Shown piece after piece: positions 6,235 through 47,709 of a stretch of 64,000 bases of DNA. Below the pieces are notes generated by a model. It ran no database searches. It saw only the letters and a program-made list of their open reading frames with translations, and was not told the DNA's origin. The position numbers and the translations under genes are program-made. Each line of letters starts with the position of its first letter. Positions within the stretch are counted from its first letter, which is position 1. Source of the DNA: a virus; the IMG/VR virus record IMGVR_UViG_2799112719_000001; one strand, given 5' to 3'.

Positions 6235-7215
6235 GATACTCCCTACACCTGAAGCCTTTTCGTGGCTCAAACTCTTCAAAGGAATGGGCTACGAAATGGG
6301 CTTTTTTGTTGACCCATCCTGCCATGTCCTTTTGCCATTGTGGAATGATATGGTGTGGGTTGTTAGGATCACGGTAGGGCTGGGCATGTGGATAGACATA
6401 GCGGCCCTGATGTGAGGCCCGCGTCTCTTGTGTACGATGCCACCAATAGGTGATGCGCTCGTAGCACTCCCTGAAGTCTGAGGTGAGCATGGTGTATAGG
6501 AAGTATTGCCCTGTGAAGCCGTAGCGGTTGATCATATTCATGGCCCGCTCACATTCTGCTATCTGTCCGTGTGTGTCACAGCCGAAGCGGATGCGGTTGT
6601 TATCGAGCCACTTCACTTTTGCCAGCAGCTGTGCTATCTCATCCGTTACCAGTCGTGCATCGAGGGCCTGATTGAAGTCCACTCGGTAGCCTCTTTCTAT
6701 AATCTTTTGCAGCTGCTGTATGCAGTAGTCGCCAGCAGCCAGAATATTGTTATCCATCAGCACTAACTTACGACGGCCCTCAATGGCTATTTCGTCCACA
6801 TCCATATATGGCCGGATGGCTCCCTCTTTCTTGGGCACCACACACCAACGGCATTTGTTAGGACAGCCGCGAGTGAGGAATCCGTAGGCAGTATCTTTCG
6901 GGATGTTAGGATAGATGGAGTAGTCTGGCTGCAAACGGTCTATTTCGTCGGGCAACTGGCTCAGAGGATCATAGCCGGTGCCTCCTTTGATGATTTTGTC
7001 TGCATCGTAGATATAAGTATCGTCTGGGGAAAAGTTAAACACTTTCGACATATACACAATGTCGTAGTGCTCCATGGGGCTTGCCCATGAGATTTGCCCC
7101 CCCCCCTATTACGCCAGTATCTCGCAATCTTAGCGAGTGCGAGATTGGGGTAAATCGTGGCTCCCCACTTTTTTTTCTTGGCGTGTCCGTCCACGTCCAC
7201 AAGTCCTATCTTCAT
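6206..7215 (-). CDS. Radical SAM protein, split by a G10 tract (7097-7106)
   Basis: TRGCPNKCRWC is a CxxxCxxC cluster. The N-terminal 84-aa ORF (MKIGLVDVDG...IARYWRNRGG) joins MEHYDIV... if the tract is 8 or 11 nt. Confidence 0.75.
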
Positions 7216-7310
7216 ATATTAAGCATGTTTGAACAGTCTTATTTTGCAGAAATCTGTCACATTAAGCAGGTTTGAAACTTCTTAATTTACAGATACCCGT
7301 CAAATTCTAA

Positions 7311-7553
7311 TCAATTCTTACCTTTACTCTGTTGTGCCATGGCCATCAGTTTACGCTCTTCGTCGGTGGTGGTGTCAAGCGTGATTTGTTTGAAGTCTGG
7401 GTATTTCTCCCATATCAGATCAGAGGCTTCAAGAGCCTTTGATACGGTGTCTTTTATCAAGTCCTGAAATCCGTCCAGGTTCTTAATCTCGTTGGTCTCA
7501 GGTTCAATGCGGAAAGTTCTGTCATTGATGCCCTGTGCTAATATAATTTTCAT
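7311..7553 (-). CDS. hypothetical protein
   Basis: 80-aa ORF with the TCATnAA leader directly upstream. Confidence 0.55.
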   Translation of the reverse strand: MKIILAQGINDRTFRIEPETNEIKNLDGFQDLIKDTVSKALEASDLIWEKYPDFKQITLDTTTDEERKLMAMAQQSKGKN

Positions 7554-7581
7554 AATTTAATGAATTGATGAATTACTTAAA

Positions 7582-7722
7582 TCATTTATTTTTCTTGTGA
7601 AGAATGACCCTGTTATACGTTTCCTCAATAGCTTTATATTCCTGTATTGTCATTGGTATAGGTGGGGTCATAGGACGTAACATTGGACGTTTTTTAGGCA
7701 ATGAGTATTTTTTGTTTGACAT
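7582..7722 (-). CDS. small hypothetical protein (46 aa)
   Basis: Hand-translated as MSNKKYSLPKKRPMLRPMTPPIPMTIQEYKAIEETYNRVILHKKNK. Fills the gap between neighbouring genes. Confidence 0.3.
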   Translation of the reverse strand: MSNKKYSLPKKRPMLRPMTPPIPMTIQEYKAIEETYNRVILHKKNK

Positions 7723-7737
7723 AATCGTAATCTTTCT

Positions 7738-8551
7738 TCATATCTCGAAATCTAATGTTAGCTGTCTGCTTGCTTCTCTGATGCGTTTTTTAGCAACCTT
7801 GAAATACTTTGGGTCTTTCTCGATGCCGATATACTGCCTTTTCTCCATGATGGCCGCTACACAGGTGGTGCCGCTTCCCATCGTATTGTCTAAAATTACC
7901 CCCCCCCATTTGGCTATAAGTCCTTATCAGGTAGCGTAGCAGATCCACGGGCTTTTGTGTCGGATGGAACACAGTGGTCTCATGCTCTTTCTGAATATGG
8001 ATGATGCTCTGAGGAAATTTCTCGTTGGGTCGGGTAGGGGCCACCTTGCGTATTTGCTTATCGTAGTCATACGTTCTGCCGGTCTTGAACTGTCCGTAAC
8101 AGTTGTTAGTCCTGGGGTGCTCCAACTTCCCCTGGGAATGGTTTGGCTCTCCGATGCCCATCTGAGGGTTATAGACAGGCAGCTGCTTATAGAACACACA
8201 AATATCCTCATGGCAACGCATGGGCATACGGTTGGCATTCAGAAAGCCGGTGCCGCGTCCTTTATCCCATATCAGATTGTATCTCCAGAGCTTCCTATTG
8301 CTTTGCATGAGGTCGCTGGTAAACATTCCCTGGGCAAAGAGTATAATTGCACCATTGGGCTTAATAATGCGCTCATATTGCGCCCAAAGTGGCTGGAACG
8401 GAATTATTCGGTCCCATTGCGCATTAGGGTTGTCTTTGTGAAGCACCTGGTATGGCAGATCGCAGATGATGGCATCAATGCTTTCGTCTGCTATCCCTGT
8501 CATCAGGTCCAGGCAGTCGCCTAAGTATATGTTGTTTGGCTCTACGTTCAT
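7738..8551 (-). CDS. N6/N4 DNA methyltransferase (beta class), frameshifted at a G9 tract (7899-7907)
   Basis: DLPY (motif IV) and HPTQKPVDLLRYLI. After the tract the -1 frame reads VILDNTMGSGTTCVAAIMEKRQYIGIEKD (motif I). In frame if the tract is 8 nt. Confidence 0.85.
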
Positions 8552-9168
8552 TTCGTTTCTATTGAGTTTCCATCGTTTGTGACCTTCAGGCGAAACATCT
8601 TCAGGCGGTCATCACCATCTGAGAGGTTGGCATTGAGCCAGGCCATGATGTTCTCGCCCACGAACTCCATGATATCCTTTGTGTCGTAGGTGTCGCAGGA
8701 TGGATAGGTCATTTCCACTTCGATCGTCAGCTTCTTATAGGGCTTCGGATAATTGAGCATCTGGTGTTTCCATTTCTCCATGTCCTCGAAAGATGGTTTG
8801 AATTGGGGAAAGATGATCTTATCAGGGATAGAGCCTAATGTGCTCTTTGGAGCAGGCACACTCTTTACCTCTTCCAACGCCTGAAAGAAAGCCTCGAAGG
8901 GTAGTCTGTGAAAGCCTAACTCATCCTGTGGATGCAATTCGGCATATTGCTTATCGAAGAGAGACACGATGCTTGGTACTGGTCTGCCGCTAATGATACA
9001 TATCATTCTTGCTGAGTATTTGATATGGCGGTGCTTGGTGCCTCGTGCCAGTTTTACGCCTGGTATTGGCGTATCGTCGTAGATGATAGTCGTATCGAAG
9101 TCGTACACCTGTCCTACTTCAAACTTCGCTCCTTCGATTTCCAGTCCTATAATACACTTCGCTTTCAT
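8548..9168 (-). CDS. hypothetical protein
   Basis: 206-aa ORF. Its start overlaps the upstream gene's stop codon by 4 nt. Confidence 0.6.
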   Translation of the reverse strand: MKAKCIIGLEIEGAKFEVGQVYDFDTTIIYDDTPIPGVKLARGTKHRHIKYSARMICIISGRPVPSIVSLFDKQYAELHPQDELGFHRLPFEAFFQALEEVKSVPAPKSTLGSIPDKIIFPQFKPSFEDMEKWKHQMLNYPKPYKKLTIEVEMTYPSCDTYDTKDIMEFVGENIMAWLNANLSDGDDRLKMFRLKVTNDGNSIETK

Positions 9169-9187
9169 AATTTAATGAATTTATGAA

Positions 9188-9673
9188 TCAAAACTTTTTC
9201 CATTCATCTTCGCATGGTAGCAGTTCTGGGTTGTCGATGACATTGCCGATGACTGTCAGCGAACTGTCTTTCAGATCTTCGCTCGGTATGCTGCTGGGAG
9301 CAAGTTTCCAGGGTGCCAATGGTCCATACTTTCCACATCTACTGATGAAGAAACCATCAATGCCCCATTTTATCAGTCCATGAGTGGTGTGGCTTCCGGC
9401 ACTCCAGGCATCCACAATGTCGCCCTCATAGACTCGCTTCCCTGTCTTATCCTTGGTGCCGACATATTGCCCGACGGTGTTAGGATCTACGGTGTGCCAG
9501 TAGCCACCTTTGCTACGTTCTCCTGGCTCATCGTTGAAAATGCTGGGTATCTCTTTGAAGCCAGTCACTTCGTCGTGGTTATCAGTCATAGCGATATGGA
9601 GTGGGGCATAGAATCCTTTTATCCATTCGCCGGTCTTGATGTCTTTACCTCTAAATCGAATTTCTCTTCTCAT
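9188..9673 (-). CDS. YopX-family protein
   Basis: MRREIRFRGK...GQYVGTKDKTGKRVYEGDIV is a typical YopX motif. Start moved to M16 so it does not overlap the upstream Zn-ribbon ORF. Confidence 0.7.
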   Translation of the reverse strand: MRREIRFRGKDIKTGEWIKGFYAPLHIAMTDNHDEVTGFKEIPSIFNDEPGERSKGGYWHTVDPNTVGQYVGTKDKTGKRVYEGDIVDAWSAGSHTTHGLIKWGIDGFFISRCGKYGPLAPWKLAPSSIPSEDLKDSSLTVIGNVIDNPELLPCEDEWKKF

Positions 9674-9678
9674 AGTTA

Positions 9679-9846
9679 TTACTTTTTGATTAGTTCGTGC
9701 GCGTCGTAGCCGCACCATGTGCAGATGCCGAGAGCGACGTTAGGCGCATAGTTTTCTTTGCCACATTTGGGGCAGCGGATGAGCAGTAGGGTGTCTGTGT
9801 CCTCGTAGTGCTCAACACCAGGTGCTAAAATCTTTGGCTTACTCAT
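9679..9846 (-). CDS. small Zn-ribbon protein (55 aa)
   Basis: Hand-translated as MSKPKILAPGVEHYEDTDTLLLIRCPKCGKENYAPNVALGICTWCGYDAHELIKK, with two CxxC pairs. Confidence 0.5.
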   Translation of the reverse strand: MSKPKILAPGVEHYEDTDTLLLIRCPKCGKENYAPNVALGICTWCGYDAHELIKK

Positions 9847-9858
9847 AATTTGATGAAT

Positions 9859-10113
9859 TTATAAAAACCAGTGATGAAGTTGACTCTCCATGATAACGTC
9901 TCGCAGTCCGTCGATATATACATAGACACCAGCAGCTGTAACTTTGCGGATGGTGGCCGTCATGCCATTGTCTGAATGAATGACATCGCCAGGCTTCAGA
10001 TCATCGACTGTGAGCGGTGTATGTTCCACCTCTGCAATATTTATCATCGGTGGCTCACTGTTTGTCTTTATCGGCTCTTGGTAGAGCTGGGTGATAATCA
10101 ACTTCTTTGTCAT
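9859..10113 (-). CDS. hypothetical protein
   Basis: 84-aa ORF with the TCATnAA leader. Confidence 0.55.
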   Translation of the reverse strand: MTKKLIITQLYQEPIKTNSEPPMINIAEVEHTPLTVDDLKPGDVIHSDNGMTATIRKVTAAGVYVYIDGLRDVIMESQLHHWFL

Positions 10114-16897: not shown

Positions 16898-18565
16898 TTA
16901 CCCGAAGTCGAGCATGGAATTTTTCTGCTTCTGCTGATATTCCTCGTGGTACATCTGCCAGATGTCACGGTAATGGTTGATGTCATCCATCAGTTTGCCA
17001 CGCATCTGCTTGGTGACATTCTTCTGCTCGTTGATGGCAGCCTGTCGGTTGTCGGCACTGAGCATCTGACGCAGGCAGTGGCCTACGATGGTACGAGTGC
17101 CCCAGCCACCGAAGCTGAGGTTACTCTCAGGACAGATAATCGTATCTCCACAATAGGAGTACCAGATGTTATCCTCGATGGTGTAGAAGTTGACGGCATC
17201 CTCACCAATAACCATCAGTACGTCGGGCGCATCCTTATAGATGGCGGCACAGAGGGCAACACCTTTCCAGGTCTCTAACTTCACAAACAGCATGTCATCC
17301 AATAGCTGCTGGTCGCGCAACAGGTCAATGAGCTGCTCATTGCTGGAGTCAGCACATCCGCGCTCATCGAAATGGAGTTTCAACTGATCGCCGTTATTGC
17401 CACCGTAGAGCCATGTAAGGTAGGCATGGAGAATCTTATCATTCCAGGATGGGAGCATCTGGCGCACCTCTTCCTGGTCTGCTTTGTCGAATACCAGTTT
17501 GGTAAGGTCAAACTCAATGCAGTTGGCCCAATCTCTGAGGTAGGGTTCAGGTGACAGGCGCACACAGTTGCTTTCCAGTCCTAACAGCTCGTGTGTCTGT
17601 GTGCCAAACTCCTTTTGGAACTCATCGAATACCTTGTTGGTGATGTTGGCAAAGACAGGACCTAATAGGTCAAAACGAGCCTCGAAGGTGTCGATGCGCT
17701 CTGCCAGTGTTGGCTCTTTCACTTCTGCCAGTTCCACCGTCATGTCACCATCGGCATCCCTCTGCTCCTGAGTCTTCAGGAAGGTGTCGAGCATCTGCTG
17801 GCGACGCTTCAAATCATCTTCGGCCATCATCAAACGGATTTTGTCTGAGGTGGCTCTGTCGGGCTTCTGGCCAGGCTTCAGCTCGTTTAGTTTACTTTGG
17901 TAGAATTGTTCCAGTGTGATGGCCTTTACCTGATACTGCTTGGCCAAAGCAGAAAAGTTTTTCAGCGAATTATTCTGCTGATAAAACTCCACCACGGCAC
18001 AAAGGTACTCGTGGAATTTCTTTAATCTCTGTTCGTTCATATATAAATTGATTTTAGGGGTTATAGTGTCCTGTGCCTTTTCCGTAGGCAGTGGCTTTGC
18101 AGCTGCTTCTTTCTTCTCGGCCTTCTGGCGTTTCTTCTGCTCTGCTTCCTCTTGTAAGGCTTGCTGACGCTCTGCCTCACGTCGTTTCTGCTCGGCGATC
18201 TTCTCTTCACGAAGCTGCTGGGCGCGTTCCTTTTCCTCGGCCTCGCGCTGGCGGTTCTCTTCGTCGATCTTTTCCTGGGCCACTTTCAGCTGCTCTTTCC
18301 ATGCCTCCAGTTTTTCCTCGGCGGCCTTTGCTTTGGCATCTGCTTTCTCGGCCCGTTCACTCCATCCAAAGGGAGCACCCACCAAACGATTCTCTTTCAC
18401 CATTCGACGGGCTACGCAGGGATTTATACTGCTGCTCGATGCTGGGATAGTCCTGCCGTCAGGATGTTTCCAGATCTGATGCTTGGTGGTACGGTCGAGT
18501 ACAAAGCCATTCTTTTTCAATAGCCGCTCCCAATCTTTCTTGCTGATGTTATGTAAACCTCCCAT
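16898..18565 (-). CDS. HicA-like N-terminal domain fused to a long coiled-coil protein
   Basis: From MGGLHNISKKDWERLLKKNGFVLDRTTKHQIWKHPDGRTIPASSSS (HicA/YcfA-like), then a KE-rich coiled coil and a roughly 300-aa C-terminal domain. Confidence 0.5.
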   Translation of the reverse strand: MGGLHNISKKDWERLLKKNGFVLDRTTKHQIWKHPDGRTIPASSSSINPCVARRMVKENRLVGAPFGWSERAEKADAKAKAAEEKLEAWKEQLKVAQEKIDEENRQREAEEKERAQQLREEKIAEQKRREAERQQALQEEAEQKKRQKAEKKEAAAKPLPTEKAQDTITPKINLYMNEQRLKKFHEYLCAVVEFYQQNNSLKNFSALAKQYQVKAITLEQFYQSKLNELKPGQKPDRATSDKIRLMMAEDDLKRRQQMLDTFLKTQEQRDADGDMTVELAEVKEPTLAERIDTFEARFDLLGPVFANITNKVFDEFQKEFGTQTHELLGLESNCVRLSPEPYLRDWANCIEFDLTKLVFDKADQEEVRQMLPSWNDKILHAYLTWLYGGNNGDQLKLHFDERGCADSSNEQLIDLLRDQQLLDDMLFVKLETWKGVALCAAIYKDAPDVLMVIGEDAVNFYTIEDNIWYSYCGDTIICPESNLSFGGWGTRTIVGHCLRQMLSADNRQAAINEQKNVTKQMRGKLMDDINHYRDIWQMYHEEYQQKQKNSMLDFG

Positions 18566-18567
18566 AA

Positions 18568-18701
18568 TTATTCTGCATGAATAAAACAGTCTCTCGTTTC
18601 TTCGTCGCAATGCTCAATAGTCTGGATGTCTCTGCTGGGGCAGAAGGCACCGTATTGGTCGAATCGCTCACAGATGCTTGCTAAACCGCAGTTTACGCCG
18701 T
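18568..18701 (-). CDS. small Cys-rich protein (44 aa)
   Basis: Hand-translated as MKCHGVNCGLASICERFDQYGAFCPSRDIQTIEHCDEETRDCFIHAE. Confidence 0.35.
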
Positions 18702-28563: not shown

Positions 28564-29715
28564 ATGAAATTTAGTGTTTCCTCCCGTGAGCTGCTGCGCA
28601 TCCTGAAGGCTACTGGTGCAGTCATCCTCCGTAAGAACAGCCTTCCCATTCTGGCCGACCACCTCTTTACCCGTGATGGCGATAAATTCTTCATCACTGG
28701 CTCTTCACAGGAAAATTCGTTGACGATGCCTATTGGTATTACGCTCGACAATGGTAGCGACTTCCAGCCGTTCTGTTTGTTGGCCGTTGACATTATCCCG
28801 CTGCTGGGTGCTCTTCCTGAACAGCCGATAACGGTAGAAGTGGATATGAGCAACCATATTGCTAAGATCATCTACCAGAGTGGTCAGGTGTCGGTGCCTG
28901 TTGAAGACAGTGCCGAATATCCGCGTGTGTCCGATGTAAAGGAGCCAAAGACTTCTTTCGACATCGAGGCCAATATTTTCTTCCCTGCTGTGAAAGCGGC
29001 CAACGGCTGTACGGCTATTGACAGTACGCTGCGCCCTCAGATGTCTGCCGTTGCTCTTGACGTACAGGATGAGGGTGTGGTATTTGTTGGCTCTGATGGC
29101 CACTCGCTCTATAAGTATTCCTATCAGCATGGCGCACCGTTCCTGACTGGCAGTAAGGTGGTTATCCTTATTCCCAACACCATTGCAGGACAGCTTCAGG
29201 CTCCCTTTGCCGGTGTTGAGACGCTGACCATCCAGCATGACGGTAAGCATGTGTGCCTGAAGGCTGGTGATATCACCTTTACCATCCGCGACATTGAACA
29301 GAAGTACCCCAACTACAACTCTGTCATTCCAAAGAACAGCCCCTATCATGCCACCCTGCCTGTGGCTGCTCTCGCTGGTGCAGTGAAGCGTGTGCAACTG
29401 ATGGCCAGTGATGCGTCAAACATGGTGAAACTCTCCAAGGAAGGTATGTTCCTGAACCTGTCGGCTGAAGACTACGATTTCTCGAAGACGGCATCAGAGA
29501 ACCTGGTGCTGGCAGAGGTGGATAATCCGCTGACCATCCCAGATGGCTTTGCTATCGGCTTCAAGGCTTCGTCGTTGCTGATGCTTCTGGGTAATATCTC
29601 TACCGACAATGTGACGTTGCAGCTGTCTGAACCCTCTCGCGCTATTCTGGTCCTGGAGGATGCTCCTAACAGTGCTCTCGTGGAATTGTTGATGCCTATG
29701 CAGCTGAATGCCTAA
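28564..29715 (+). CDS. dnaN: DNA polymerase III beta sliding clamp
   Basis: 383 aa. MKFSVSSRELLRILKATGAVI...LPIL is a typical DnaN N-terminus, and the length fits three domains. Confidence 0.85.
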   Translation: MKFSVSSRELLRILKATGAVILRKNSLPILADHLFTRDGDKFFITGSSQENSLTMPIGITLDNGSDFQPFCLLAVDIIPLLGALPEQPITVEVDMSNHIAKIIYQSGQVSVPVEDSAEYPRVSDVKEPKTSFDIEANIFFPAVKAANGCTAIDSTLRPQMSAVALDVQDEGVVFVGSDGHSLYKYSYQHGAPFLTGSKVVILIPNTIAGQLQAPFAGVETLTIQHDGKHVCLKAGDITFTIRDIEQKYPNYNSVIPKNSPYHATLPVAALAGAVKRVQLMASDASNMVKLSKEGMFLNLSAEDYDFSKTASENLVLAEVDNPLTIPDGFAIGFKASSLLMLLGNISTDNVTLQLSEPSRAILVLEDAPNSALVELLMPMQLNA

Positions 29716-30828: not shown

Positions 30829-30982
30829 ATGGTAGCACAGTCCCCTATTGTCCTCGGTCAATATTCTCCGTCTCAGAATGGCATAGTGGTGTCGCCTTTT
30901 GGCCCATCACTATGTGTTTCTGGGGGGGGGCAATGGCCATGATACAGACAAACCCAAAATACTTATAGAGTATGACCTGTAG
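30829..30982 (+). CDS. C5-MTase TRD-like mini-ORF A (out of frame at G9, 30922-30930)
   Basis: MVAQSPIVLGQYSPSQNGIVVSPFGPSLCVSGGG/NGHDTDKPKILIEYDL. Contiguous only if the tract is 8 nt. Confidence 0.6.
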
Positions 30983-31134
30983 GCATTCTGTTACGACAAC
31001 TCTCATTAACCCTGACAGGGGGGGGGCAAATCGCTCGTACCATCAAGTATCAGTATTATAAAACCAGCCTGGCTAACTTTCTGCTGAAAACACAGCGTGG
31101 AGCAACCGGCGTATTGATAGAGTATGATTTTTAG
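30972..31134 (+). CDS. TRD-like mini-ORF B (out of frame at G9, 31018-31026)
   Basis: The ATG is nested in the TATGAC (Y-D) codons of ORF A. MTCRHSVTTTLINPDRGG/QIARTIKYQYYKTSLANFLLKTQRGATGVLIEYDF. In frame at G8. Confidence 0.55.
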
Positions 31135-31311
31135 AGTAACCAATGTGGGGAAACCCAAGCAGATTAGGGGGGGCAAATCCGACCTATCAATGTTACGCAA
31201 GATCTTTGCGCTGCCACTCTCACTACCCGCTACGATGCTGTTGGGCCTACTAATATTATCACATTGGCCCATTACCCGATGACAGTTGTATTGATAGAAC
31301 ATGATCTATAA
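31124..31311 (+). CDS. TRD-like mini-ORF C (out of frame at G7, 31167-31173)
   Basis: The ATG is nested in the Y-D codons of B. MIFRVTNVGKPKQIRGG/QIRPINVTQDLCAATLTTRYDAVGPTNIITLAHYPMTVVLIEHDL. In frame at G8. Confidence 0.55.
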
Positions 31312-31479
31312 GGCAATAGGTTGGACTCGCTCTGCTTCTGGACGTGGTGACGTTACTCGTTACCATTTGAAGAATGTTTGCAATACCATCACCTCATTTT
31401 CAGGGGGGGCATTGGCAAAGATTCCACAACAGGAATGTATAACACCACTCCTTATATCTTAGTTGAGCACGAACTGTAA
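31301..31479 (+). CDS. TRD-like mini-ORF D (out of frame at G7, 31403-31409)
   Basis: The ATG is nested in the H-D codons of C. MIYKAIGWTRSASGRGDVTRYHLKNVCNTITSFSGG/GIGKDSTTGMYNTTPYILVEHEL. In frame at G8. Confidence 0.55.
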
Positions 31480-31490
31480 TAAGAAAAAAT

Positions 31491-32944
31491 ATGATTGCAA
31501 AGATTTATCCAGACAACCACCCTGAACTTCAGGGCAAAAAGGATCCGAAGCACCCTGTGAGGTACTTCGATATCCGAAAACTCACCCCCCCGAATGCTAT
31601 ACGCTCATGGGCGTTCCAAGCCCATACATCGACGTGCTGATGAGTACCGAACAGCGACCTTATACGGCTTTTGTCGGTGTTGATAATCAGCTGGCAGTAT
31701 TCGGACTTGAACCGACGGCAACGATGAAAGAAGTAGAGGAAGCCTACCGTGAGGCCCTGGAAAGCCTTGAAGCTCCTATTCCCGATGATGAAGAGAATGA
31801 TGATGAAGTCCCCGTTTCCGAAGATGAAGACGATGCCGAAGAGATTTCCCTTATGCGCCAGAACTACGAACTGGCCTACAACACTATTCTGAAAGCACCG
31901 ACTGAAGAAAAGTTTGGCCCTGTGCAGATCATCAGTAATAGCAACCACTATAAACTCGCTGGCAACTCCATCGTCTGTGATGTTTTGATGTATATCTATG
32001 AGGAAATTTTCTATCCTACTGGCCGTCGTTTGCCTGCCGAACAGCAGGATATGTTTGCACTGCCTCAGTTCCAGCTTTCCCGTAACTGGAAAAAGCAACC
32101 TCTAAAACTCGTTACTTTGTGTTCTGGCTATGATTCGCAAGCGATTGCATTCGATATGTTGAAAGAGCGTTATCCTGATTTCGATTATAGATTGATGGCT
32201 TGGGCAGAGTTTGACCCTGAAAGTAAACGTGCCCTTGATGAGCAGCCTGCCGTTGTTGCTCATAATCTTCTTTTTCCAGATGCAAAAGACCTCAATCGTG
32301 GCGACATGACAAAGGCTGACTGGAGCGACCTTGCAGATGAAGGAATCGACTTCCTGACTTATTCTACTCCATGTCAGAGTATTTCACAGGCTGGCAAACG
32401 AGAGGGCATCAAAAAAGGCTCTGGCACCCGTTCTGCCGTACTGTGGCATACTGAGGATGCCGTAAAGGTGATGCACCCAAAGATCCTTCTGCAAGAGAAT
32501 GTCCGTGCGCTGATTAACAGCGTCAATATGCCCGACTTCCGCGAGTGGTGTCAACTGTTGGAAAAGTATGGATATGTCAACTTCCTGGCACCGTCATTCC
32601 CGACACCATGGGGAGAAACGAAACGTGATAAGAAGACTATACCAGGCATTCTGAATAGTAAGCATTATGGTGTGCCGCAAAATCGTGAGCGTGTCTATAT
32701 GATTTCTGTCCGTAAGGATGTGCTTGACGATACGCAATATGAGTTTCCGCGTCCATTCCCATTGGAAAAGTGCATTGCAGATATCCTGGAAGATAATGTC
32801 GATGAGCGTTTCTTCCTGAAGCCCGATTCAGTAATCAAATTCCTTACAGTGAATGAGAGTGACCAGCAGGCTCAGATATTCTATATTGTCACAGATCATA
32901 AACTCTCTGATGAAGAGATAGCAAAGGCTCGTGCCGGTCAATAG
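31491..32944 (+). CDS. DNA (cytosine-5) methyltransferase core, circularly permuted (motifs IX-X-I-IV-VI-VIII), frameshifted at C7 (31585-31591)
   Basis: VRYFDIRKLTP(P)ECYTLMGVP is motif IX and KLAGNSIVCDV is motif X. LVTLCSGYDSQ is motif I, TYSTPCQSISQAG motif IV, QENV motif VI and GVPQNRERVYMIS motif VIII. The protein stops inside the variable region. In frame at C8. Confidence 0.85.
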
Positions 32945-32946
32945 AT

Positions 32947-33159
32947 ATGATGTACTTGCGTGATAGAGACCCAGCCAGTTCTAATGACTCTGTGAGAGTA
33001 TGCTCCAGTGTAAACCGTGACCTCGATTGCATCAGTTTTCGTGGTGCCCATGCTGACAGAAACTTTCATCAGGTCATAGAACTTGGCTCTTCTCGCGTCA
33101 CGAATACAATAACGTCCGTTCAAAAAGATAACCTCGTATGGATAGAGAGAATGATATAA
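32947..33159 (+). CDS. TRD-like mini-ORF E (no homopolymer)
   Basis: 70 aa, ending ...LGSSRVTNTITSVQKDNLVWIERMI. Starts 3 nt after the core stop codon. Confidence 0.5.
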   Translation: MMYLRDRDPASSNDSVRVCSSVNRDLDCISFRGAHADRNFHQVIELGSSRVTNTITSVQKDNLVWIERMI

Positions 33160-33344
33160 AAACCACTCCCGCCACCGTGCCCGATGAGTCAGCAGCGGGT
33201 GCCCCTGTCGGAAAGCCGTTGGGTATTATCCGTTACCCTCACGGCAAGTTTCGTGGTGGCATACGTCCGGCTGATATTCTCCCTCCATTAACCAATTCCG
33301 ATTTTCAAAACAACAACTTTGTCATTATCGAATATGACCTCTAA
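33138..33344 (+). CDS. TRD-like mini-ORF F (Gly-Gly encoded GGT GGC, no homopolymer)
   Basis: 68 aa: ...KFRGGIRPADILPPLTNSDFQNNNFVIIEYDL. Confidence 0.55.
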   Translation: MDRENDIKTTPATVPDESAAGAPVGKPLGIIRYPHGKFRGGIRPADILPPLTNSDFQNNNFVIIEYDL

Positions 33345-33596
33345 ATCCGCTGTAAGGCATTATATCCCCAGCCGTCCATTCCTCTCGACCGCTACGAGGG
33401 GGGGCAATTCGTGTTGCAAGTCAGACAGGCAACCGAACTGGGCTATATCGAGTGTGTCAGCGGTGGGTGTTTCGATATGGCTTACCCATCCTCTCAGCTT
33501 CGACGCTCCCGTGTCAAAGAGGATGGGCGTGTTGCTTCCGTCCTGATGTCTGGTGAAACGTCTCAATGTGTGTTTATAGAATATGACTTTGATTAA
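33334..33596 (+). CDS. TRD-like mini-ORF G (out of frame at G7, 33398-33404)
   Basis: The ATG is nested in the Y-D codons of F. MTSKSAVRHYIPSRPFLSTATRGG/QFVLQVRQ...RVASVLMSGETSQCVFIEYDFD. In frame at G8. Confidence 0.55.
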
Positions 33597-33783
33597 GCTG
33601 TCGCATACAACCTCCGCACCTCCAAAACCCTTACAGGGGGGGGTACTTCTTCCCATTAACACAGCATCCGGCGGTATCTGTTGCACCCTTAACACCCGTT
33701 ACGACGGTATGCAACTCCCCGAAGACATCCTCAGTCTCGCACATTATCCCAAGACGGTCATCCTTATTGAGCACTATCTATGA
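33583..33783 (+). CDS. TRD-like mini-ORF H (G8 tract 33636-33643, intact)
   Basis: The ATG is nested in the Y-D codons of G. MTLIKLSHTTSAPPKPLQGGVLLPINTASGGICCTLNTRYDGMQLPEDILSLAHYPKTVILIEHYL. Confidence 0.6.
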   Translation: MTLIKLSHTTSAPPKPLQGGVLLPINTASGGICCTLNTRYDGMQLPEDILSLAHYPKTVILIEHYL

Positions 33784-33898
33784 GGGTAGAATCAATGTTT
33801 CGCAGGATGGTTTAATTATTTCTCCTTTTGGCATTTCTCCTACTCATACCGCTGGCCACGGTAATTGTCCCAAAATCCTAATAGAGTACGATTTGTAG
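33780..33898 (+). CDS. TRD-like mini-ORF I (start unclear; nested ATG is out of frame at a GGG run)
   Basis: Reading frame GRINVSQDGLIISPFGISPTHTAGHGNCPKILIEYDL. The ATG at 33780 joins this frame only with one extra G at 33784-33786. A TTG at 33767 is in frame. Confidence 0.4.
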
Positions 33899-42099: not shown

Positions 42100-43002
42100 A
42101 TGTATCTCATCAAACCATCAGTAGAATTATGGCCTGCGCCAGAGCAGTGGCAGGAACAGGTGGCTCGTGCTGCCCGTCTGTGCTATGCCTCTGAAGGTGG
42201 GCAGAAGAGTGCCGAGGACTTCTGCGAAATGCTGAAGAAACGTAATCACCTCTCGATGTTCCGGCATGGATCACGCTATTTCGTGGTGCCTAACGTGCAG
42301 CACTCTGAGGAAGCCGATAAAGAACATTTCCCGTTGTGGATGTTTACGGCTCTGAATAACTCGCCCTATGTGGGCATCGTCTATCACAAGGATAAGAAGG
42401 CTAAGACGCGCAACTACTTTGTCTCTACCAACCTTCAGTATCTCATGGATAACCCTCGCATTGAGTCACAGCTGGTGCCTTACGAGGTGACACTCCAGCA
42501 GTTTGTGGGAAAGGCCAATGAACTGAACTTTGTCACGGCATTGGCTCTGGTTCGTTATACGGTATGTGTGACAACGCAGATCAGTACCAGCCGCGAACTG
42601 AACCGCACTTCGCCTAACAACATTGCGGAGCAGAGCACCCGCTATGTCAACTTCGGCAAAAAGGGTGGCATCACCATCTGTTTGCCTCACTGGTATAACT
42701 GTGCTCACTGGACGAAGAAACTGATGGCCCGCACGTTCTGGAAGTGTAGCGAGTGGGCATATAAGCTGGGGCTTCGCCTCGGACTGCCTGCACAGGATGC
42801 GCGTGGTTTCCTGGCTCTTGATACGGCTACCCGTGTGGCCTATACCTACAATGTCTTCGAGTGGAAAGCCATTATGCGCTTGCGTCTCACTGGTGAAACA
42901 GGCAAGCCACATCCCAATGCACAGATCGCTGCACAGCAGATTCACGATGCCATTCTGCCTCAGATGCGTGTCTATGGTGGCGAAAGCGCGACTTTAGTGT
43001 AA
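42100..43002 (+). CDS. ThyX-like (flavin-dependent thymidylate synthase fold) protein with divergent signature motif
   Basis: NHLSMFRHGSRYF and SRELNRTSPNNIAEQSTRYV align with the ThyX blocks, but the RHR..S signature reads RTS..N. Confidence 0.5.
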   Translation: MYLIKPSVELWPAPEQWQEQVARAARLCYASEGGQKSAEDFCEMLKKRNHLSMFRHGSRYFVVPNVQHSEEADKEHFPLWMFTALNNSPYVGIVYHKDKKAKTRNYFVSTNLQYLMDNPRIESQLVPYEVTLQQFVGKANELNFVTALALVRYTVCVTTQISTSRELNRTSPNNIAEQSTRYVNFGKKGGITICLPHWYNCAHWTKKLMARTFWKCSEWAYKLGLRLGLPAQDARGFLALDTATRVAYTYNVFEWKAIMRLRLTGETGKPHPNAQIAAQQIHDAILPQMRVYGGESATLV

Positions 43003-43037
43003 TAACTCATATTTTTTTAACTTAAAAGTAAATTTTC

Positions 43038-43481
43038 ATGGAAAAAACTTTGAATTACCCCCCCCTGGAAGAGCTGAAGACGCTCACGGAGGAAGAGGTC
43101 AGAGCATGGTTTGGAAAAGTCCGTATCTGGCGTGATGAGCACATCGACGAACTGCGTCATCAACAAGAGACGGCCATCTTTAACATCAGGACTGAGCAAA
43201 AGGTGGAACGTAACCGTATTATCTGCCTGATTGAACTGAAACGCTCTCAACTGCCGACTGGTGGCAATACAGATGAGCGTGAGCGAACACTGACACTGCG
43301 TAACGAGATTCATAATCTCGATTACGAAATGCAGACGAATGACATCAACAGCCGTAAAAAAATTGCGGATATCAAGTATGAGTCTAAACGGGCCATCAAT
43401 GACATTCAGCGTCAATGGGAAACCGCTACGGGAACCTTGAAACAAGCCCTCGCTTTCGTCTGCAATAAGACTGAGGACTAA
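43038..43481 (+). CDS. coiled-coil protein
   Basis: 147-aa ORF containing an in-frame C8 tract (43058-43065). Confidence 0.55.
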   Translation: MEKTLNYPPLEELKTLTEEEVRAWFGKVRIWRDEHIDELRHQQETAIFNIRTEQKVERNRIICLIELKRSQLPTGGNTDERERTLTLRNEIHNLDYEMQTNDINSRKKIADIKYESKRAINDIQRQWETATGTLKQALAFVCNKTED

Positions 43482-43513
43482 GTTACTATAATTATAATTA
43501 TGATAAATAAACA

Positions 43514-44296
43514 ATGAAACGACCACTCGCCCACACTGCGATATACAAGCCTGAAGGCCCTGCACAGGAGTATGCTGTCTGGGGATGCAATCTCTATAAG
43601 GGATGCGTCCATCAGTGTACCTATTGCTATCTCCGTCGTGGCCCGATGGCAAAGCAGCTCGGCGGTGCTGTGCCTGAGATAGAGAAAAAAGTGGGTGGTA
43701 CGGAAGAGAAGGCTTACCGACGCTTCTGTATGGAAGTGGATGCTTACCATGAGTTGTTTAGGGCTGATGGTGGCATTTTCTTCTCTTTCAGTACCGACCC
43801 AATGCTTCGTGAGACGTATGCACTGACCATAAAGTGTGCTATCTATGCCATGGAGCACCATGTGCCGGTGTATATTCTCACGAAAGCGACATGGTGGGTA
43901 CAGAATACTGAGATTATCCAGCAGCTCTTTCCGTACCGCTATTATCTGCATATCGGCTTCACACTGACAGGCTTTGACTATATGGAGCCAAACGCTCCAA
44001 AGAACAGTAACCGCCAGGTGGCAATGATCATGCTGGAGAGCATGAATTTCAAGTGCTGGGCTTCGATGGAGCCAGTCATTGACTTTGCTATGTCGTTGGC
44101 TATCATTGAGACCGTAAAGGATGTGTGCCGTGAGTTCCGCATCGGCCTCCTGTCGCCCTACTCTGCCAAACGGTATGATTGGAATGAGTGTGACCGATTC
44201 ATGCAGCATGTCGAAAAACTATCAAACGAGTATGAGTTTAAGGTCGTTTGGAAGGAATCTATCAAGAAATTTTACCGAGAAGAAAAACCTGAATAA
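43514..44296 (+). CDS. Radical SAM protein (SplB/photolyase-like class)
   Basis: NLYKGCVHQCTYCY is a CxxxCxxC cluster near the N-terminus. Confidence 0.7.
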   Translation: MKRPLAHTAIYKPEGPAQEYAVWGCNLYKGCVHQCTYCYLRRGPMAKQLGGAVPEIEKKVGGTEEKAYRRFCMEVDAYHELFRADGGIFFSFSTDPMLRETYALTIKCAIYAMEHHVPVYILTKATWWVQNTEIIQQLFPYRYYLHIGFTLTGFDYMEPNAPKNSNRQVAMIMLESMNFKCWASMEPVIDFAMSLAIIETVKDVCREFRIGLLSPYSAKRYDWNECDRFMQHVEKLSNEYEFKVVWKESIKKFYREEKPE

Positions 44297-44787
44297 TGGC
44301 AAACAGAACACAGCAGAATCCAGTAGTCAGCTCCGATGAGTGGTACACCCCTCGTTGGGTTGTGGACGAACTCGGCCCGTTTGACCTTGATCCATGTGCG
44401 CCTATGCAACCTCCATACGAGATTGCGCCGTTGTCGTTCAATAAGGAGCAGGATGGATTGAGTCAGACGTGGCCGGACGCTGCTGTTGTGTTTATGAATC
44501 CACCTTATAGCCGTCCGCTGCTGCGTCCGTTTGTTGAGAAGCTGGCAGAGCATGGCAATGGTATCGCATTGCTGAAGAATCAGGTGGATAATCTGCTGTT
44601 CCAGGAAGTCGTTTTTGCTCGTGCCACCTCGATGCTCTTCATGCGTCATCGCATCAAGTTCATTACACCTGATGGCACCACCGGCTCCCCGTTCTTTGGC
44701 TCGGTGCTTGTGGCTTTTGGCCATGAATGTGACCGCCGCTTGCGCCGATCTTCCATCCCAGGAAAGTATGTTGTATTAAATATGTAA
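44296..44787 (+). CDS. Phage Dam-like DNA N6-adenine methyltransferase
   Basis: DEWYTP, FDLDPCA and the FMNPPYS catalytic motif. Confidence 0.8.
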   Translation: MANRTQQNPVVSSDEWYTPRWVVDELGPFDLDPCAPMQPPYEIAPLSFNKEQDGLSQTWPDAAVVFMNPPYSRPLLRPFVEKLAEHGNGIALLKNQVDNLLFQEVVFARATSMLFMRHRIKFITPDGTTGSPFFGSVLVAFGHECDRRLRRSSIPGKYVVLNM

Positions 44788-44812
44788 TTGTATTAACAAA
44801 ATTGTTTTAATT

Positions 44813-45211
44813 ATGGAAGCATTTGATTTTATCAAAAAAGAGTTGCCAGACGTATTACTGGCTAAATTGGATTTTGACGTAGTTCTTTCAAAGCGTCAAG
44901 TGGTCGAGAAAATCTCGGCATTGGAGCCTACTTTTGGAGGCATGGCCGTCCATTACGAAAACCATGGGCGTAGAGTAGAAATTATTTGGAGCAAGGCACT
45001 CCAGGAGAAATGGGCCGACCGTCTGAATGCCGGTCAAAAGGTGCGCTACATTCAAAAGAATAGCAAAGGACAGGTTATGAAACCCCAATGCCGTGATGGT
45101 GTTCTTTCTGAGTCTGGTGTCTTCTGGGTTGGCACAGATCGTTGTGTGTATGCTGATTTTGGCGAAGGCTCTGAAGCCTACGACATTACTCATATAGAAC
45201 CAGCTGAATAG
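44813..45211 (+). CDS. hypothetical protein
   Basis: 132-aa ORF. Confidence 0.55.
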   Translation: MEAFDFIKKELPDVLLAKLDFDVVLSKRQVVEKISALEPTFGGMAVHYENHGRRVEIIWSKALQEKWADRLNAGQKVRYIQKNSKGQVMKPQCRDGVLSESGVFWVGTDRCVYADFGEGSEAYDITHIEPAE

Positions 45212-45213
45212 TT

Positions 45214-45537
45214 ATGCCCTACGGAGTCTGTAAAGTTTGTGGATGCACAGACAATGATCCGTGTCACAATCCGTCGCACGGTAATTGCTGGTGGGTGGAT
45301 GATTCCCATGAGCTGTGTAGCCATTGTGCTGATAAGACGATTGCGGATGATCCTGCAACTCAGCATTGCATCAACAGCAAGGGCTTTGACCCCTACCCTG
45401 GTATTGATCGTAAAGACCTTGCATCCCTCGGCTGTCCTTTTCCTGATGATACTGGAGATATGTGTAGTGAATGCTCTCACATGAGTTTTTCCAGCGTGTT
45501 TACAGGAGAATGTGATTTAGGTATAAAAATTAGATAA
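45214..45537 (+). CDS. Cys-rich (probable Zn-binding) protein
   Basis: CKVCGCTDNDPCHNPSHGNCWW...LCSHC, plus a second CSEC pair. Confidence 0.55.
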   Translation: MPYGVCKVCGCTDNDPCHNPSHGNCWWVDDSHELCSHCADKTIADDPATQHCINSKGFDPYPGIDRKDLASLGCPFPDDTGDMCSECSHMSFSSVFTGECDLGIKIR

Positions 45538-45554
45538 TTAAAGAATATCAGGTA

Positions 45555-46370
45555 ATGAATAGATATATTTGTCGTGCAAAGGCCGTTGAAGATGGCCGTT
45601 GGGTGGTAGGTGAGCCGCATATCATGTCCTTACAACCGCACATCCATATTTCACCTTTGGAGTCTGTCAGGATAGATCCTAATACGCTTGGAAGGTTTAC
45701 AGAATGGCGTGATAAGAACGGTAAGCCTATCTTTGAGGGTGATATCCTGTCACTAATACTTCCTGATGGTAGTGGCCGTTTGTTTATCGTAGAATGGCAA
45801 CGTCAGATTAGACATTTGGAGTCTTTGAAAGACTTTGAGCCAGACGGTAATCCCGTAGAGATTAGCGGATGGTGTTTCACCTGGGGTAAGCATCGACTAT
45901 TGCCATCGTATATCGGCGAGGTGCCCGACTATAAGCGTATGGAGATCGTCGGCAATATCCATGATAACAGTGACATGCTGACTGATGAAAACGAGGCTAA
46001 GATTACTGGTCAGCGTGAACTCATCGGTAATACTTGCTGTCTCTCAAACAAACCTGGTGTGCAGGTCTTCATGTATGACCTGAAGGATGACAATGGCAGT
46101 TGGTTGGCCCGTTGTTTCCTCACTTCTGATGGTGTCTATATGTCCTACTCTGAATGGGGTAATTTCTTCCACTACTTTATGGCTCCTGGTAAGGATGGTA
46201 TTCGTAAGTTTATGCTTGGTATTAGCGACGGCTACTTTGCCAACAAGCTCTGTGAAGTGGAATGGAATACGGCACCGACAAAGGTAGCTGCTGCTGCCAA
46301 GCGTCATGCAAAGTATGTCCTGCCGGTACTCCAGCAGGCTATTCGTGAACAGTTGGAACAGGAAGGGTGA
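45555..46370 (+). CDS. YopX-domain protein with C-terminal extension
   Basis: LGRFTEWRDKNGKPIFEGDILS...IVGNIHDN. Confidence 0.65.
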   Translation: MNRYICRAKAVEDGRWVVGEPHIMSLQPHIHISPLESVRIDPNTLGRFTEWRDKNGKPIFEGDILSLILPDGSGRLFIVEWQRQIRHLESLKDFEPDGNPVEISGWCFTWGKHRLLPSYIGEVPDYKRMEIVGNIHDNSDMLTDENEAKITGQRELIGNTCCLSNKPGVQVFMYDLKDDNGSWLARCFLTSDGVYMSYSEWGNFFHYFMAPGKDGIRKFMLGISDGYFANKLCEVEWNTAPTKVAAAAKRHAKYVLPVLQQAIREQLEQEG

Positions 46371-46374
46371 CTAT

Positions 46375-46650
46375 ATGGTAGAAGAATCTCTTTGGGGTGT
46401 GTCGCTCTCAATGGCAGCAAAAGAGTTGCCGATGACTGAGAGTGTTCTGGCACAGACGATACAGAGTATGCGGATCTGTCAGCAGAAGTATAAGGAGGAT
46501 GAGCCTGAGTTCGACCGTCTGAATCATTTGATAACAATGGTTGGTGGTATCTCCTATATGATGCAGGGAGTTGAAGCAGCTTTGAATGCTATGGTGATTG
46601 ATATGCTGAAAGAGTATAAACAGATGAAAGAGAAAGTATCTCACGAATGA
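46375..46650 (+). CDS. hypothetical protein
   Basis: Start placed at the ATG (MVEESLWG), 5 nt after the upstream stop. Confidence 0.5.
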   Translation: MVEESLWGVSLSMAAKELPMTESVLAQTIQSMRICQQKYKEDEPEFDRLNHLITMVGGISYMMQGVEAALNAMVIDMLKEYKQMKEKVSHE

Positions 46651-46907
46651 TGGATCAACTGGTTTATATAGTAGTAGTTTACGGCTATCTGTTGCCGACA
46701 ATCATTTTGTTTGTCGATTTCCTTTGGCATGTCTGCTGTAAGGTGAAAAAGGGCGAGAGATTTTATAGTGGTTATATGAAGAAACAGATGATGATGTTTG
46801 TTCCCTGTTTCAACTACTTCTGGGCGTTATTTACTCTCCTTGATTGGCTTGATGCCATTGGTCGTTTCTTACAAAAATATCTTCCAGGACTAAAAAATAT
46901 AAACTGA
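46647..46907 (+). CDS. small membrane protein
   Basis: Two hydrophobic helices and a 4-nt overlap with the upstream gene. Confidence 0.5.
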   Translation: MMDQLVYIVVVYGYLLPTIILFVDFLWHVCCKVKKGERFYSGYMKKQMMMFVPCFNYFWALFTLLDWLDAIGRFLQKYLPGLKNIN

Positions 46908-46916
46908 ATTTTAATT

Positions 46917-47474
46917 ATGTCTGAGACTAAAAAACATTATCGTGTCTATATGGCCCTGGACCTCGTGACAGAGGATGAGGGCAGGACATTGGCCATGGTG
47001 AATGTTATGCGTATGTCGAATGAACCGGCACCATTGCCTATGATGACACAGTTCATGGGTGGCATGTCAAACCTGGCTCCAAAGGTGATGGTGGTGCAGC
47101 AGCCTACGCATGGCAAAACAAACCAGCGTACAGGTGTTGATCCTGACCTTGATTGTGATGACTTTGAACGTGGAGAGCCTGAAGGCTATTGTGATGGTAT
47201 GGGACATTACCATTGTGATGAATGTAAGTGGCGTAGTCAGGAGTCGATTAACCAAAAGCACGAGGACTTCATGCGTCATCAGAACCATAAAAAGGAATGG
47301 CCGAAGATTAAAGCCATTGTTATTGATTCTGGCGAAGAGGTAATGGTCGATGACCATGCTATTGATTTCTTTGGAACCAGTTATTATAACATGTGGCATA
47401 ATACAGCAAATGGTATGACATACCATGACGATGACCTGGAATTTATCGACGAAAGACTGCAAAAAACAACATGA
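46917..47474 (+). CDS. hypothetical protein (Cys/His-rich centre)
   Basis: 185 aa. CDDFERGEPEGYCDGMGHYHCDECKW. Confidence 0.55.
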   Translation: MSETKKHYRVYMALDLVTEDEGRTLAMVNVMRMSNEPAPLPMMTQFMGGMSNLAPKVMVVQQPTHGKTNQRTGVDPDLDCDDFERGEPEGYCDGMGHYHCDECKWRSQESINQKHEDFMRHQNHKKEWPKIKAIVIDSGEEVMVDDHAIDFFGTSYYNMWHNTANGMTYHDDDLEFIDERLQKTT

Positions 47475-47709
47475 CTATGAATCAGTATAATGTATCGGGG
47501 GGGTAAAATCGCCCTTCAGAGGGAATGGACTAAGCCGTACTGCTATGCTCTTTAAGATAGCAACATTGGCAGGTCATAAGTTGACTGTTCCCGAAATGAA
47601 TAAGTTTAAGAATGTCAATCCTCGGAGTCTTGAACGTGTGTATAACGAAGTGATCCGCATGGGTGATTCTGGTAATGCCATGTTTGCCCTACGATTGATA
47701 CTGAAATAA
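47471..47709 (+). CDS. small hypothetical protein, out of frame at G7 (47497-47503)
   Basis: MTMNQYNVSGG/VKSPFRGNGLSRTAMLFKIATLAGHKLTVPEMNKFKNVNPRSLERVYNEVIRMGDSGNAMFALRLILK. In frame at G8. ATGA overlap with the upstream stop. Confidence 0.45.

Follow-up and report, generated by a model that had tools for sequence, protein, structure and literature searches.

The virus record IMGVR_UViG_2799112719_000001 of IMG/VR, analysed here over a stretch of 64,000 nt with 48% G+C (the window), carries eleven long G/C homopolymers, seven of which fall in an array (30829-33898) of nine overlapping mini-ORFs (open reading frames) placed around the core of a circularly permuted C5-cytosine DNA methyltransferase (MTase). 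We propose that the eleven runs are hypermutable contingency tracts that toggle accessory DNA-modification genes, and that the array modules are gated recognition units; we would put the probability of this reading at roughly 0.7. A bolder version, tentative and in our judgment a little less likely to be right than wrong, is that the array is a combinatorial epigenetic diversifier, in which one permuted core would be programmed in trans by up to about a dozen poly-G-switched mini-subunits and itself switched by poly-C, so that up to 2^6 methylation patterns (more in relatives) would be generated continuously, as a bet-hedge against defences that attack unmethylated DNA and those that attack methylated DNA.

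Exactly 11 G/C homopolymers of at least 7 nt occur in the window, with lengths, in order of position, of 10, 9, 9, 9, 7, 7, 7, 7, 8, 8 and 7 nt. The spectrum of G/C runs is bimodal (4-nt runs number 145 and 5-nt runs 9, 6-nt runs are absent and 11 runs have 7-10 nt), while A/T runs fall off smoothly with length. Extrapolated geometrically from lengths of 1-5 nt, the expectation for G/C runs of 7 nt or more is about 0.4, against the 11 observed, and the word G7 occurs 22 times, where dinucleotide-preserving shuffles have a mean of 3.7 and 0 of 100 reach 22. The discontinuity of the run spectrum and the excess over chance thus mark the tracts as a distinct class of feature. The pattern recurs in 738 kb of related loci, where G/C runs are again bimodal (27 of 6 nt, 77 of 7 nt, 79 of 8 nt and 43 of 9 nt) and A/T runs fall monotonically. 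These relatives were 74 loci from IMG/VR, found with the C5 core, a radical SAM protein and a neighbor of the 147-aa ORF as queries, and were supplemented from NCBI, Logan and other metagenome records. All 11 window tracts lie inside ORFs, mostly within the first 40 codons, and no structural or replication gene of the window contains one; every one is in an accessory gene tied to DNA modification.

An original prediction, made from the letters of the window alone, had listed these 11 tracts, and all its coordinates and lengths proved exact, as did its view that the tracts are concentrated in DNA-modification genes. It had also claimed that both 8-mers are in frame, whereas the nine other tracts break an ORF that is repaired at length 8. 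We rebuilt each gene and translated it at tract lengths from 6 to 12, with the same result: the only tracts in frame as observed (ON) are the two 8-mers, in mini-ORF H and the 147-aa ORF, and in the other nine genes (OFF) the conserved downstream motifs return to frame at length 8, namely GSGTT in an N6/N4 MTase, motif RKLTPPECYTLMG in the C5 core and the IEYDL-type ends of the mini-ORFs. The radical SAM gene is restored at either 8 or 11, as had been said, and gives a protein of 335 aa at 8. A single change of tract length restores each of the nine OFF genes, with no second disabling mutation in any of them. The length-8 frame is backed independently by sequences homologous on both sides of a tract, as with mini-ORFs A and C, and by relatives in which an interrupted 8-nt string replaces the radical SAM tract. 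In the wider family a tract length of 8 is the majority rule and not universal, since 49 of 59 classifiable module tracts are ON at 8 and 8 of the 59 are ON at 9.

The MTase core (31491-32944, plus strand; 484 aa at tract length 8; PF00145, E = 1.2e-37) has its motifs in the order IX (RKLTPPECYTLMG), X (GNSIVCDV), I (LCSGYDS), IV (PCQ), VI (ENV) and VIII (QNRERV), as read from its sequence and from alignments to M.MpeI and M.HhaI. In permutation of the M.BssHII type, motifs IX and X come before motifs I-VIII and the new N-terminus lies in the variable region (PMC5944983); by its motif order the window core is an enzyme of this type, with all of the conserved C5 motifs present. Beyond motif VIII it continues for about 80 residues, which align with the conserved start of the variable region in M.HhaI and M.MpeI, and 28 residues stand ahead of motif IX. 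The polypeptide therefore does not hold a complete target-recognition domain (TRD): the segment with the recognition loops is missing, and segments resembling it are present only in the adjoining mini-ORFs, and in relatives L015, L019 and P0004 one such module is fused to the core. The core tract, a C7 on the coding strand (31585-31591, plus strand), lies inside motif IX (L-T-P-P-E-C) and is OFF, which would shut down the whole methyltransferase system in the window. Relatives have core tracts of 8, 8, 8, 8, 8, 9, 10 and 7 nt against 7 in the window, and the core is OFF in the window, L006, L007 and L161; database gene calls of 434-439 aa correspond to the OFF-state core. An insertion, strongly acidic and about 100 aa long (DDEENDDEVPVSEDEDDAEE...), separates motifs IX and X (31640-31940, residues ~50-150); it occurs in the rumen clade of relatives and not in the 373-aa human-associated ones.

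The nine mini-ORFs, four ahead of the core (A-D) and five after it (E-I), all on the plus strand, encode 43-87 aa each and are of clearly different sequence types. Six of them (A, B, C, D, G and H) bear tracts. Mini-ORF A (30829-30982; 50 aa at length 8; tract G9 at 30922-30930, OFF) is TRD-like and a paralogue of I, with which, tract-less as I is, it aligns across the tract when read at length 8. Mini-ORF B (30972-31134; 53 aa at length 8; G9 at 31018-31026, OFF) is of a 'RTIKYQYYK' type; its ATG lies inside the end of A, and the homologous module of L015 and L019 reads 'GGVVRTLKANYYK'. Mini-ORF C (31124-31311; 62 aa at length 8; G7 at 31167-31173, OFF) is of a 'TLTTRYD' type and is homologous across the tract to the intact H, and D (31301-31479; 59 aa at length 8; G7 at 31403-31409, OFF) is of a 'TITSFSGGGIGK' type. 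After the core come E (32947-33159; 70 aa), intact and without a homopolymer, and F (33138-33344; 68 aa), likewise intact, which encodes 'FRGGIRP' without a homopolymer. They are followed by G (33334-33596; 87 aa at length 8; G7 at 33398-33404, OFF), H (33583-33783; 66 aa, 'TLNTRYD' type; G8 at 33636-33643, ON) and I (33767-33898), a 43-aa frame that starts at TTG and has no ATG of its own. The frame of I is open back through H, so that an H tract of 7 or 10 would fuse the first 17 residues of H to I, and this alternative H/I frame is open in L001 and L002 too. The H tract is thus a possible three-state switch (H, I or off), although I could also be started independently from the plausible TTG at 33767.

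What unites these otherwise different modules is their C-terminus, a near-invariant [LI][IV]E[YH][DE][LF] followed by the stop in all nine; at length 8, modules A, B, C, D and G each link a conserved piece at the N-terminus to a body whose last residues are IEYDL, IEHDL or VEHEL. Between 30959 and 33897 the next start codon mostly lies inside the end of the previous module (an ATG within GAG-TAT-GAC, or TTG for I), an overlap that on its face implies translational coupling. The junction motif ATAGAGTATGAC occurs in five direct copies in the array, and these repeats would offer homology for cassette exchange; between the same junctions, L002 has an allele of module C that differs from that of the window. 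An invertible shufflon was considered and rejected: the array holds only direct repeats and one weak 14-nt inverted pair, the modules are all on one strand and no recombinase is adjacent, and without significant inverted repeats or a recombinase the locus is not an invertible one.

These modules, which the original prediction had not recognised for what they may be, are probably detachable target-recognition modules of the C5 MTase. Four of them carry motifs typical of C5 TRDs (TLTTRYD in C, TLNTRYD in H, RTIKYQYYK in B and TITSFSGGGIGK in D). The strongest support for their identity as putative recognition modules is natural fusion to the core: the human-associated relatives L015 and L019 have a D-type module joined in frame to the N-terminus of the core, and P0004 has a like fusion of another module, whose tract ('MIRGGQ...') is in frame, so that the fused relatives have the order TRD, IX, X, I-VIII that is expected of a permuted enzyme. 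Around the core, rumen-clade relatives have 5-9 recognisable modules and as many as 13 tracts; in the human-associated clade there is one tract, and most modules have none. Modules of the C/H type have 356 homologues in public metagenomes, unannotated proteins of 55-79 aa that stand alone; when a C/H profile was compared with the protein database, the best 120 matches were all stand-alone small proteins, with no canonical methyltransferase among them. The arrangement is not that of the SPR/phi3T enzymes, with tandem TRDs in one polypeptide, as the modules are separate ORFs with their own starts and stops flanking the permuted core.

The other four tracts lie in genes outside the array, two of them on the minus strand. 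A radical SAM gene (6206-7215, minus strand; 335 aa at length 8) is split in the window into fragments of 84 and 289 aa by a G10 on the coding strand (7097-7106), which occupies codons 37-40 (N-R-G-G-Q) and is OFF, being ON at 8 or 11; the repaired protein matches phrog_9298 over its full length (E = 2e-97) and PF04055 weakly. At length 9 the region has a long stop-to-stop frame with a non-homologous N-terminus. Against the 10 nt of the window, the relatives' tracts are of 9, 8, 7, 7, 9, 7, 7, 8 and 8 nt, such that the gene is OFF in 7 of the 10 tract-bearing genomes, the window counted. Four loci (L028, L029, L030 and L050) have interrupted 8-nt, in-frame versions (GGGGTGAG, GGGGTGGG and GGGGAGGG), and distant relatives have no tract. 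Seventy nucleotides upstream of the poly-G, an A8 run on the coding strand (7169-7176, encoding KKKK) is in frame and serves as an internal control for homopolymer error.

The second gene encodes a beta-class N6/N4 DNA methyltransferase (7738-8551, minus strand; 270 aa at length 8) that matches the full PF01555 profile once repaired (E = 1.7e-29). Its tract, a G9 on the coding strand (7899-7907) just upstream of motif I (GSGTT), is OFF; at length 9 there is no early truncation, motif I being replaced by an out-of-frame tail of 35 aa. Tract lengths in relatives are 8, 7, 9 and 9, against 9 in the window. On the plus strand, the 147-aa ORF (p147; 43038-43481), between thyX and a second radical SAM gene, has a C8 (43058-43065, codons 7-9) that is ON (8, 7, 8, 7, 10 and 10 in relatives; 8 in the window). 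A 79-aa ORF (p79; 47471-47709, plus strand), just upstream of a DUF4406/deoxyribosyltransferase-like gene, has a G7 (47497-47503, codons 9-11) that is OFF and would be ON at 8 (8 and 9 in relatives; 7 in the window), with an alternative usable ATG ('MYRGG...') at lengths 6 or 9. Relatives have further tracts: a PAPS-reductase-family gene with two to three poly-G tracts sits between the N6 MTase and radical SAM genes of close relatives (L028, 2785-3930; L032, 2788-3930; L075, 493-1491), and L032 has in addition another methyltransferase, of the NPPY type and with a G11 (2031-2552). The window has neither gene.

Tract lengths differ between phages that are otherwise closely alike. Comparison across related genomes had been proposed with the original prediction, and among close relatives, more than 10 independent metagenome contigs or assemblies that are 95-99% identical, we found the lengths to vary. 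For array tracts A/B/C/D/core/G/H, the window reads 9/9/7/7/7/7/8 and L002 7/7/8/8/8/7/9. L161 reads 9/7/7/6/7 for A/B/C/D/core, its contig not covering G and H, and for D/core/G/H the readings are 9/8/8/9 in L001 and 7/8/6/8 in L078, whose contigs do not cover A-C. Tract C of L002 and L161 was assigned by array position, because a flank search gave no C orthologue; 10 of the 11 window tracts, C being the one unmatched by its flanks, thus have orthologues of different length. Tracts are retained at orthologous positions in clades whose cores are 61-98% identical. Aligned over 3.2 kb of the array, the window and L002 show 179 substitutions and the window and L001 show 90, with no indel that lies off a tract; seven comparisons of close pairs yielded 21 indels, of which 18 sit on tracts. 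Across 12 loci, 22 of the 59 module tracts are ON and 37 (63%) out of frame, with 1-4 modules ON per genome, and in four to five related genomes the ON set is different in each. These comparative data favor real, heritable variation in length and support the first of two explanations put forward originally, slipped-strand phase variation with mostly OFF states captured.

The frameshifted genes are nevertheless under strong purifying selection. Computed in the length-8 frame against relatives, the ratio of non-synonymous to synonymous substitution rates (dN/dS) is 0.009-0.047 for the radical SAM gene, 0.025-0.035 for the N6 MTase, 0.065-0.13 for the C5 core and 0.05 for p147. The lowest value reflects 1 non-synonymous against 27 synonymous changes between the radical SAM genes of the window and L032, both of which are out of frame. 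Low dN/dS with no second disabling mutation is the signature of genes in intermittent use, which fits reversible switching, or else rescue at the RNA level, which we consider less likely on G8.

The mechanism that we envisage begins with slipped-strand mispairing during replication, which would change tract lengths at high frequency and flip genes between in-frame lengths (usually 8 nt) and out-of-frame ones. A module that is in frame would complete the small domain by folding together with two parts of the core, the C-terminal tail and the N-terminal strand, the module's conserved C-terminal strand [LI][IV]E[YH][DE][LF] perhaps acting as the common docking element, and different modules would steer methylation to different motifs. 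A population would then consist of phages that methylate different combinations of motifs, or none. Such bet-hedging might pay because methylation would protect against enzymes that cut unmethylated sites and would make the phage vulnerable, in other host strains, to restriction or sensing that depends on methylation. Precedents in split and permuted C5 MTases, in the multispecific MTases of Bacillus phages and in the agt locus of phage T2 make this mechanism plausible.

Several observations pull the other way. The assignment of the modules is based on position, fusions and motif-level resemblance. The D motif is colinear with M.HhaI 237-261 (...IAITLSAYGGGIFAK), which holds two recognition loops, in a match that is weak and not significant alone, and the C/H module profile found no match in the PDB at E values up to 10. 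An AlphaFold2 model of the fused relative P0004, from a 58-sequence alignment, has a mean pLDDT (predicted local distance difference test score) of 64.6, and in the module region its values fall below 50; many C5 MTases were returned when a representative library was searched with P0004, but those in canonical order align over motifs I-VIII only, and hence the alignment was not deepened in the module region. As to switching, the length variation is between strains, the one indirect sign of reversible switching within a clonal population being the pair L077 and L076, with 0 substitutions and one tract change, and near-identical contigs from related samples share most tract lengths, so that switching is not fast enough to randomise the consensus. 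The more distantly related L010 (4938-8560) has exactly G6 at each of eight module tracts, a length that would be out of frame. A/T runs there reach 7-8 nt, so there is no general homopolymer compression in L010, and its uniform G6 could reflect a stable OFF state into which the whole lineage has collapsed, or else a technical effect on G runs. Finally, we know of no description of poly-G phase variation in Prevotella, the probable host genus (see below), or in its phages.

The alternative that survives best, unlikely as we hold it, leaves the tracts as they are and questions the array: the mini-ORFs would not be recognition modules acting in trans, only the module adjacent or fused to the core would matter, and the others would be remnants of cassette exchange or unrelated small proteins. 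The single-chain fusions in relatives can be read in this way, and neither the structure model nor the PDB profile search lends support to assembly of module and core in trans. Nine modules with intact frames and docking-like C-termini are, however, hard to square with remnants, those modules that were tested have low dN/dS, and hundreds of homologous ORFs stand alone in metagenomes. The window core moreover lacks recognition loops of its own, and C5 MTases split at this very point, both natural and engineered, complement each other (PMC5944983).

A second alternative, which we judge improbable, accepts the frameshifts in the DNA and has them overcome in expression: the tracts would be recoding sites, for transcriptional slippage or programmed ribosomal frameshifting, and the varied DNA lengths would be tolerated drift. 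Purifying selection on genes that are mostly OFF, such as the radical SAM gene with 7 of 10 copies out of frame, is what continued expression would leave, and the opening of module I in a second frame by the H tract fits as well. Rapid reversible switching in DNA accounts for the selection equally well, however, and rescue would have to work at every tract on both the +1 and the -1 state. Neither a stimulatory structure nor a slippery heptamer is evident. Efficient slippage by bacterial RNA polymerase is documented mainly on A/T runs of at least 9 nt, not on G8.

Somewhat less probable still is the second of the original explanations, that every tract is truly an in-frame G8 or C8, the lengths 7, 9 and 10 being homopolymer miscalls. 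It would be the simplest account of 11 window tracts that are all in frame at exactly 8, if 8 were universal, and the uniform G6 of the eight L010 tracts is suspicious in the same sense; the unverified sequencing platform of the window also speaks in its favor. Against it, no coding A/T run of 7-8 nt in the window is out of frame, which argues against a general homopolymer problem. Among more than 10 independent assemblies the lengths differ at the same tracts, and they are reproducible where they should be: L075, L076 and L077, which encode an identical core protein, agree in 14 of 15 tracts (L075 vs. L076) and in 9 of 10, and L077 differs from L076 by 0 substitutions over 7,244 nt, the sole difference being one G9/G8 tract. 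Near-identical contigs thus reproduce tract lengths, and the calls are not noisy. With 63% of classifiable tracts out of frame and G7 as common as G8, miscalling would require a consensus error above 50%. There are also homologous modules whose in-frame length is 9 and not 8, and the concentration of indels on tracts and the interrupted tracts likewise make this explanation unlikely. Decay, that is, ordinary inactivating frameshifts at mutation-prone runs in dispensable genes with no adaptive switching, would suit the predominance of OFF tracts in most genomes and the turnover of gene content seen between the N6 MTase and radical SAM genes, where relatives have genes that are missing from the window, but is very improbable and was rejected on dN/dS (0.009-0.13), there being no second disabling mutation in the nine OFF genes, ON and OFF states that interleave among close relatives, and tracts that persist across clades at orthologous positions instead of being purged.

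Contingency tracts that gate recognition units would join elements that are each already known: phage contingency loci, phase-variable MTases, permuted and split C5 MTases and multispecific phage MTases. The multispecific C5 MTases of Bacillus phages (M.SPRI, M.Phi3TI, M.Rho11sI and M.H2I) combine one core with several TRDs, each for a different target, and evade several host restriction systems. Constitutively active, their TRDs stand in tandem in a single polypeptide, in the stretch that separates motifs VIII and IX, whereas here the modules are separate and mostly switchable mini-ORFs. Phasevarions (Type III mod and Type I hsdS/hsdM, in Haemophilus, Neisseria, Helicobacter and Moraxella) are alike in having a repeat in an MTase or specificity gene, ON/OFF methylation and allelic TRDs that give different motifs; they are cellular N6-adenine systems with one switch per enzyme that regulate expression, in contrast to an orphan phage C5 MTase with many switched modules, and control of a regulon by the phage array is not implied by the likeness. 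The M.BssHII-type enzymes and the split M.AquI (PMC5944983) share the placement of IX and X before I-VIII and the new N-terminus in the variable region, and the architecture of the array is compatible with the M.AquI split, but they have a single TRD or a pair of subunits within restriction-modification systems, with no recognition-subunit array or homopolymer gating described. Type I hsdS shufflons or invertons (e.g., SpnD39III; PMC4948785, PMC7672463) also hold several specificity modules at one locus, yielding mixed specificities in a clonal population, and do so by recombinase-driven inversion between inverted repeats, whereas the modules here are in direct orientation and would be switched by frameshift.

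Among phages, simple sequence repeats of T2 and T4 include the contingency locus agt (Gomez, Barrick and Waters, bioRxiv 10.1101/2025.10.21.683753), a DNA-modification gene that in T2 trades off sensitivity to two Type IV restriction systems, TgvAB and McrBC (same source). Campylobacter phages, going by the account of Sorensen et al. 2021 that is given in PMC12823448, have poly-G tracts in receptor-binding genes. Both resemble the window in having homopolymers inside phage ORFs, with reversible frameshifts and population heterogeneity that we infer for the window. The T2 locus differs in having A runs in a single gene, as against G/C runs of which seven would gate one multi-component enzyme combinatorially, and the Campylobacter case, so far as that account describes it, differs in concerning receptor-binding genes, as against DNA-modification and accessory genes of an uncultured phage associated with Bacteroidota. 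In the full-text literature, GenBank phages and the annotations of more than 2,500 homologues, we found no array of separate recognition mini-subunits around a permuted C5 core, no individual poly-G gating of such modules and no genome-wide restriction of tracts to a DNA-modification toolkit; a poly-G-gated, multi-module split methylase appears to be undescribed.

The window also contains genes of a tailed phage, among them a 1879-aa tape-measure protein (PF10145), a head protease/capsid-like protein and tail proteins. Plasmid-like genes (2393-3256, 4071-5540 and 28564-29715), namely a ParA-like gene (phrog_164, E = 2e-50), a weak match to a Rep3-type initiator and a DnaN-like clamp, suggest an episomal, phage-plasmid lifestyle. 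The protein of the head protease/capsid region (52257-54020) has 64% identical relatives on contigs of 93-100 kb (L079-L081) that were binned with metagenome-assembled genomes of rumen Prevotella/Prevotellaceae from water buffalo and cattle; the structural regions of these three contigs have no G/C tracts. As read from the sequence, the window genes are without Shine-Dalgarno-like leaders, which fits a Bacteroidota host. The element is probably a rumen phage or phage-plasmid, with Prevotella as its probable host.

No match to the window was found among GenBank phages by megablast of 24-44 kb, and in a tblastn search of the same phages with the core no record covered at least 80% of the query, so that no cultured phage has this architecture at that coverage. 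Scanning contigs of GTDB representative genomes with the core alignment revealed no core relatives, metagenome contigs scanned for the core tract with a variable-gap pattern gave mostly chance matches and only two true relatives, and Rfam and tRNA scans of the window found nothing. Elsewhere in the window, a 570-aa ORF (16898-18610) has a HicA-toxin-like N-terminal domain (PF07927, E = 4e-6). A cluster of nucleotide- and DNA-modification genes (42100-44787 and 47718-48344) comprises ThyX (PF02511), the second radical SAM protein, with CxxxCxxC, a Dam-type N6-adenine MTase (PF05869, without a tract) encoded after it, and the DUF4406/nucleoside 2-deoxyribosyltransferase-like protein; judging from this cluster, the DNA modifications of the phage may go beyond methylation.

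The system is invisible in current databases because gene callers split or truncate its genes, leaving a 'core' of 434-439 aa and unannotated ORFs of about 60 aa. If confirmed, it would extend contingency loci from Campylobacter and T-even phages to abundant uncultured phages of gut and rumen that are associated with Bacteroidota, and would show that such loci can concentrate on the DNA-modification toolkit. The array suggests a modular, trans-acting C5 specificity, in which recognition subunits of ~50-90 aa share a common docking strand; this could explain how a phage copes with diverse restriction and Type IV systems across host strains. If true, it would be a new way to build and regulate DNA-methyltransferase specificity, and the modules would form a natural set of portable C5 recognition units that could serve as parts for engineered, targeted cytosine methylation.

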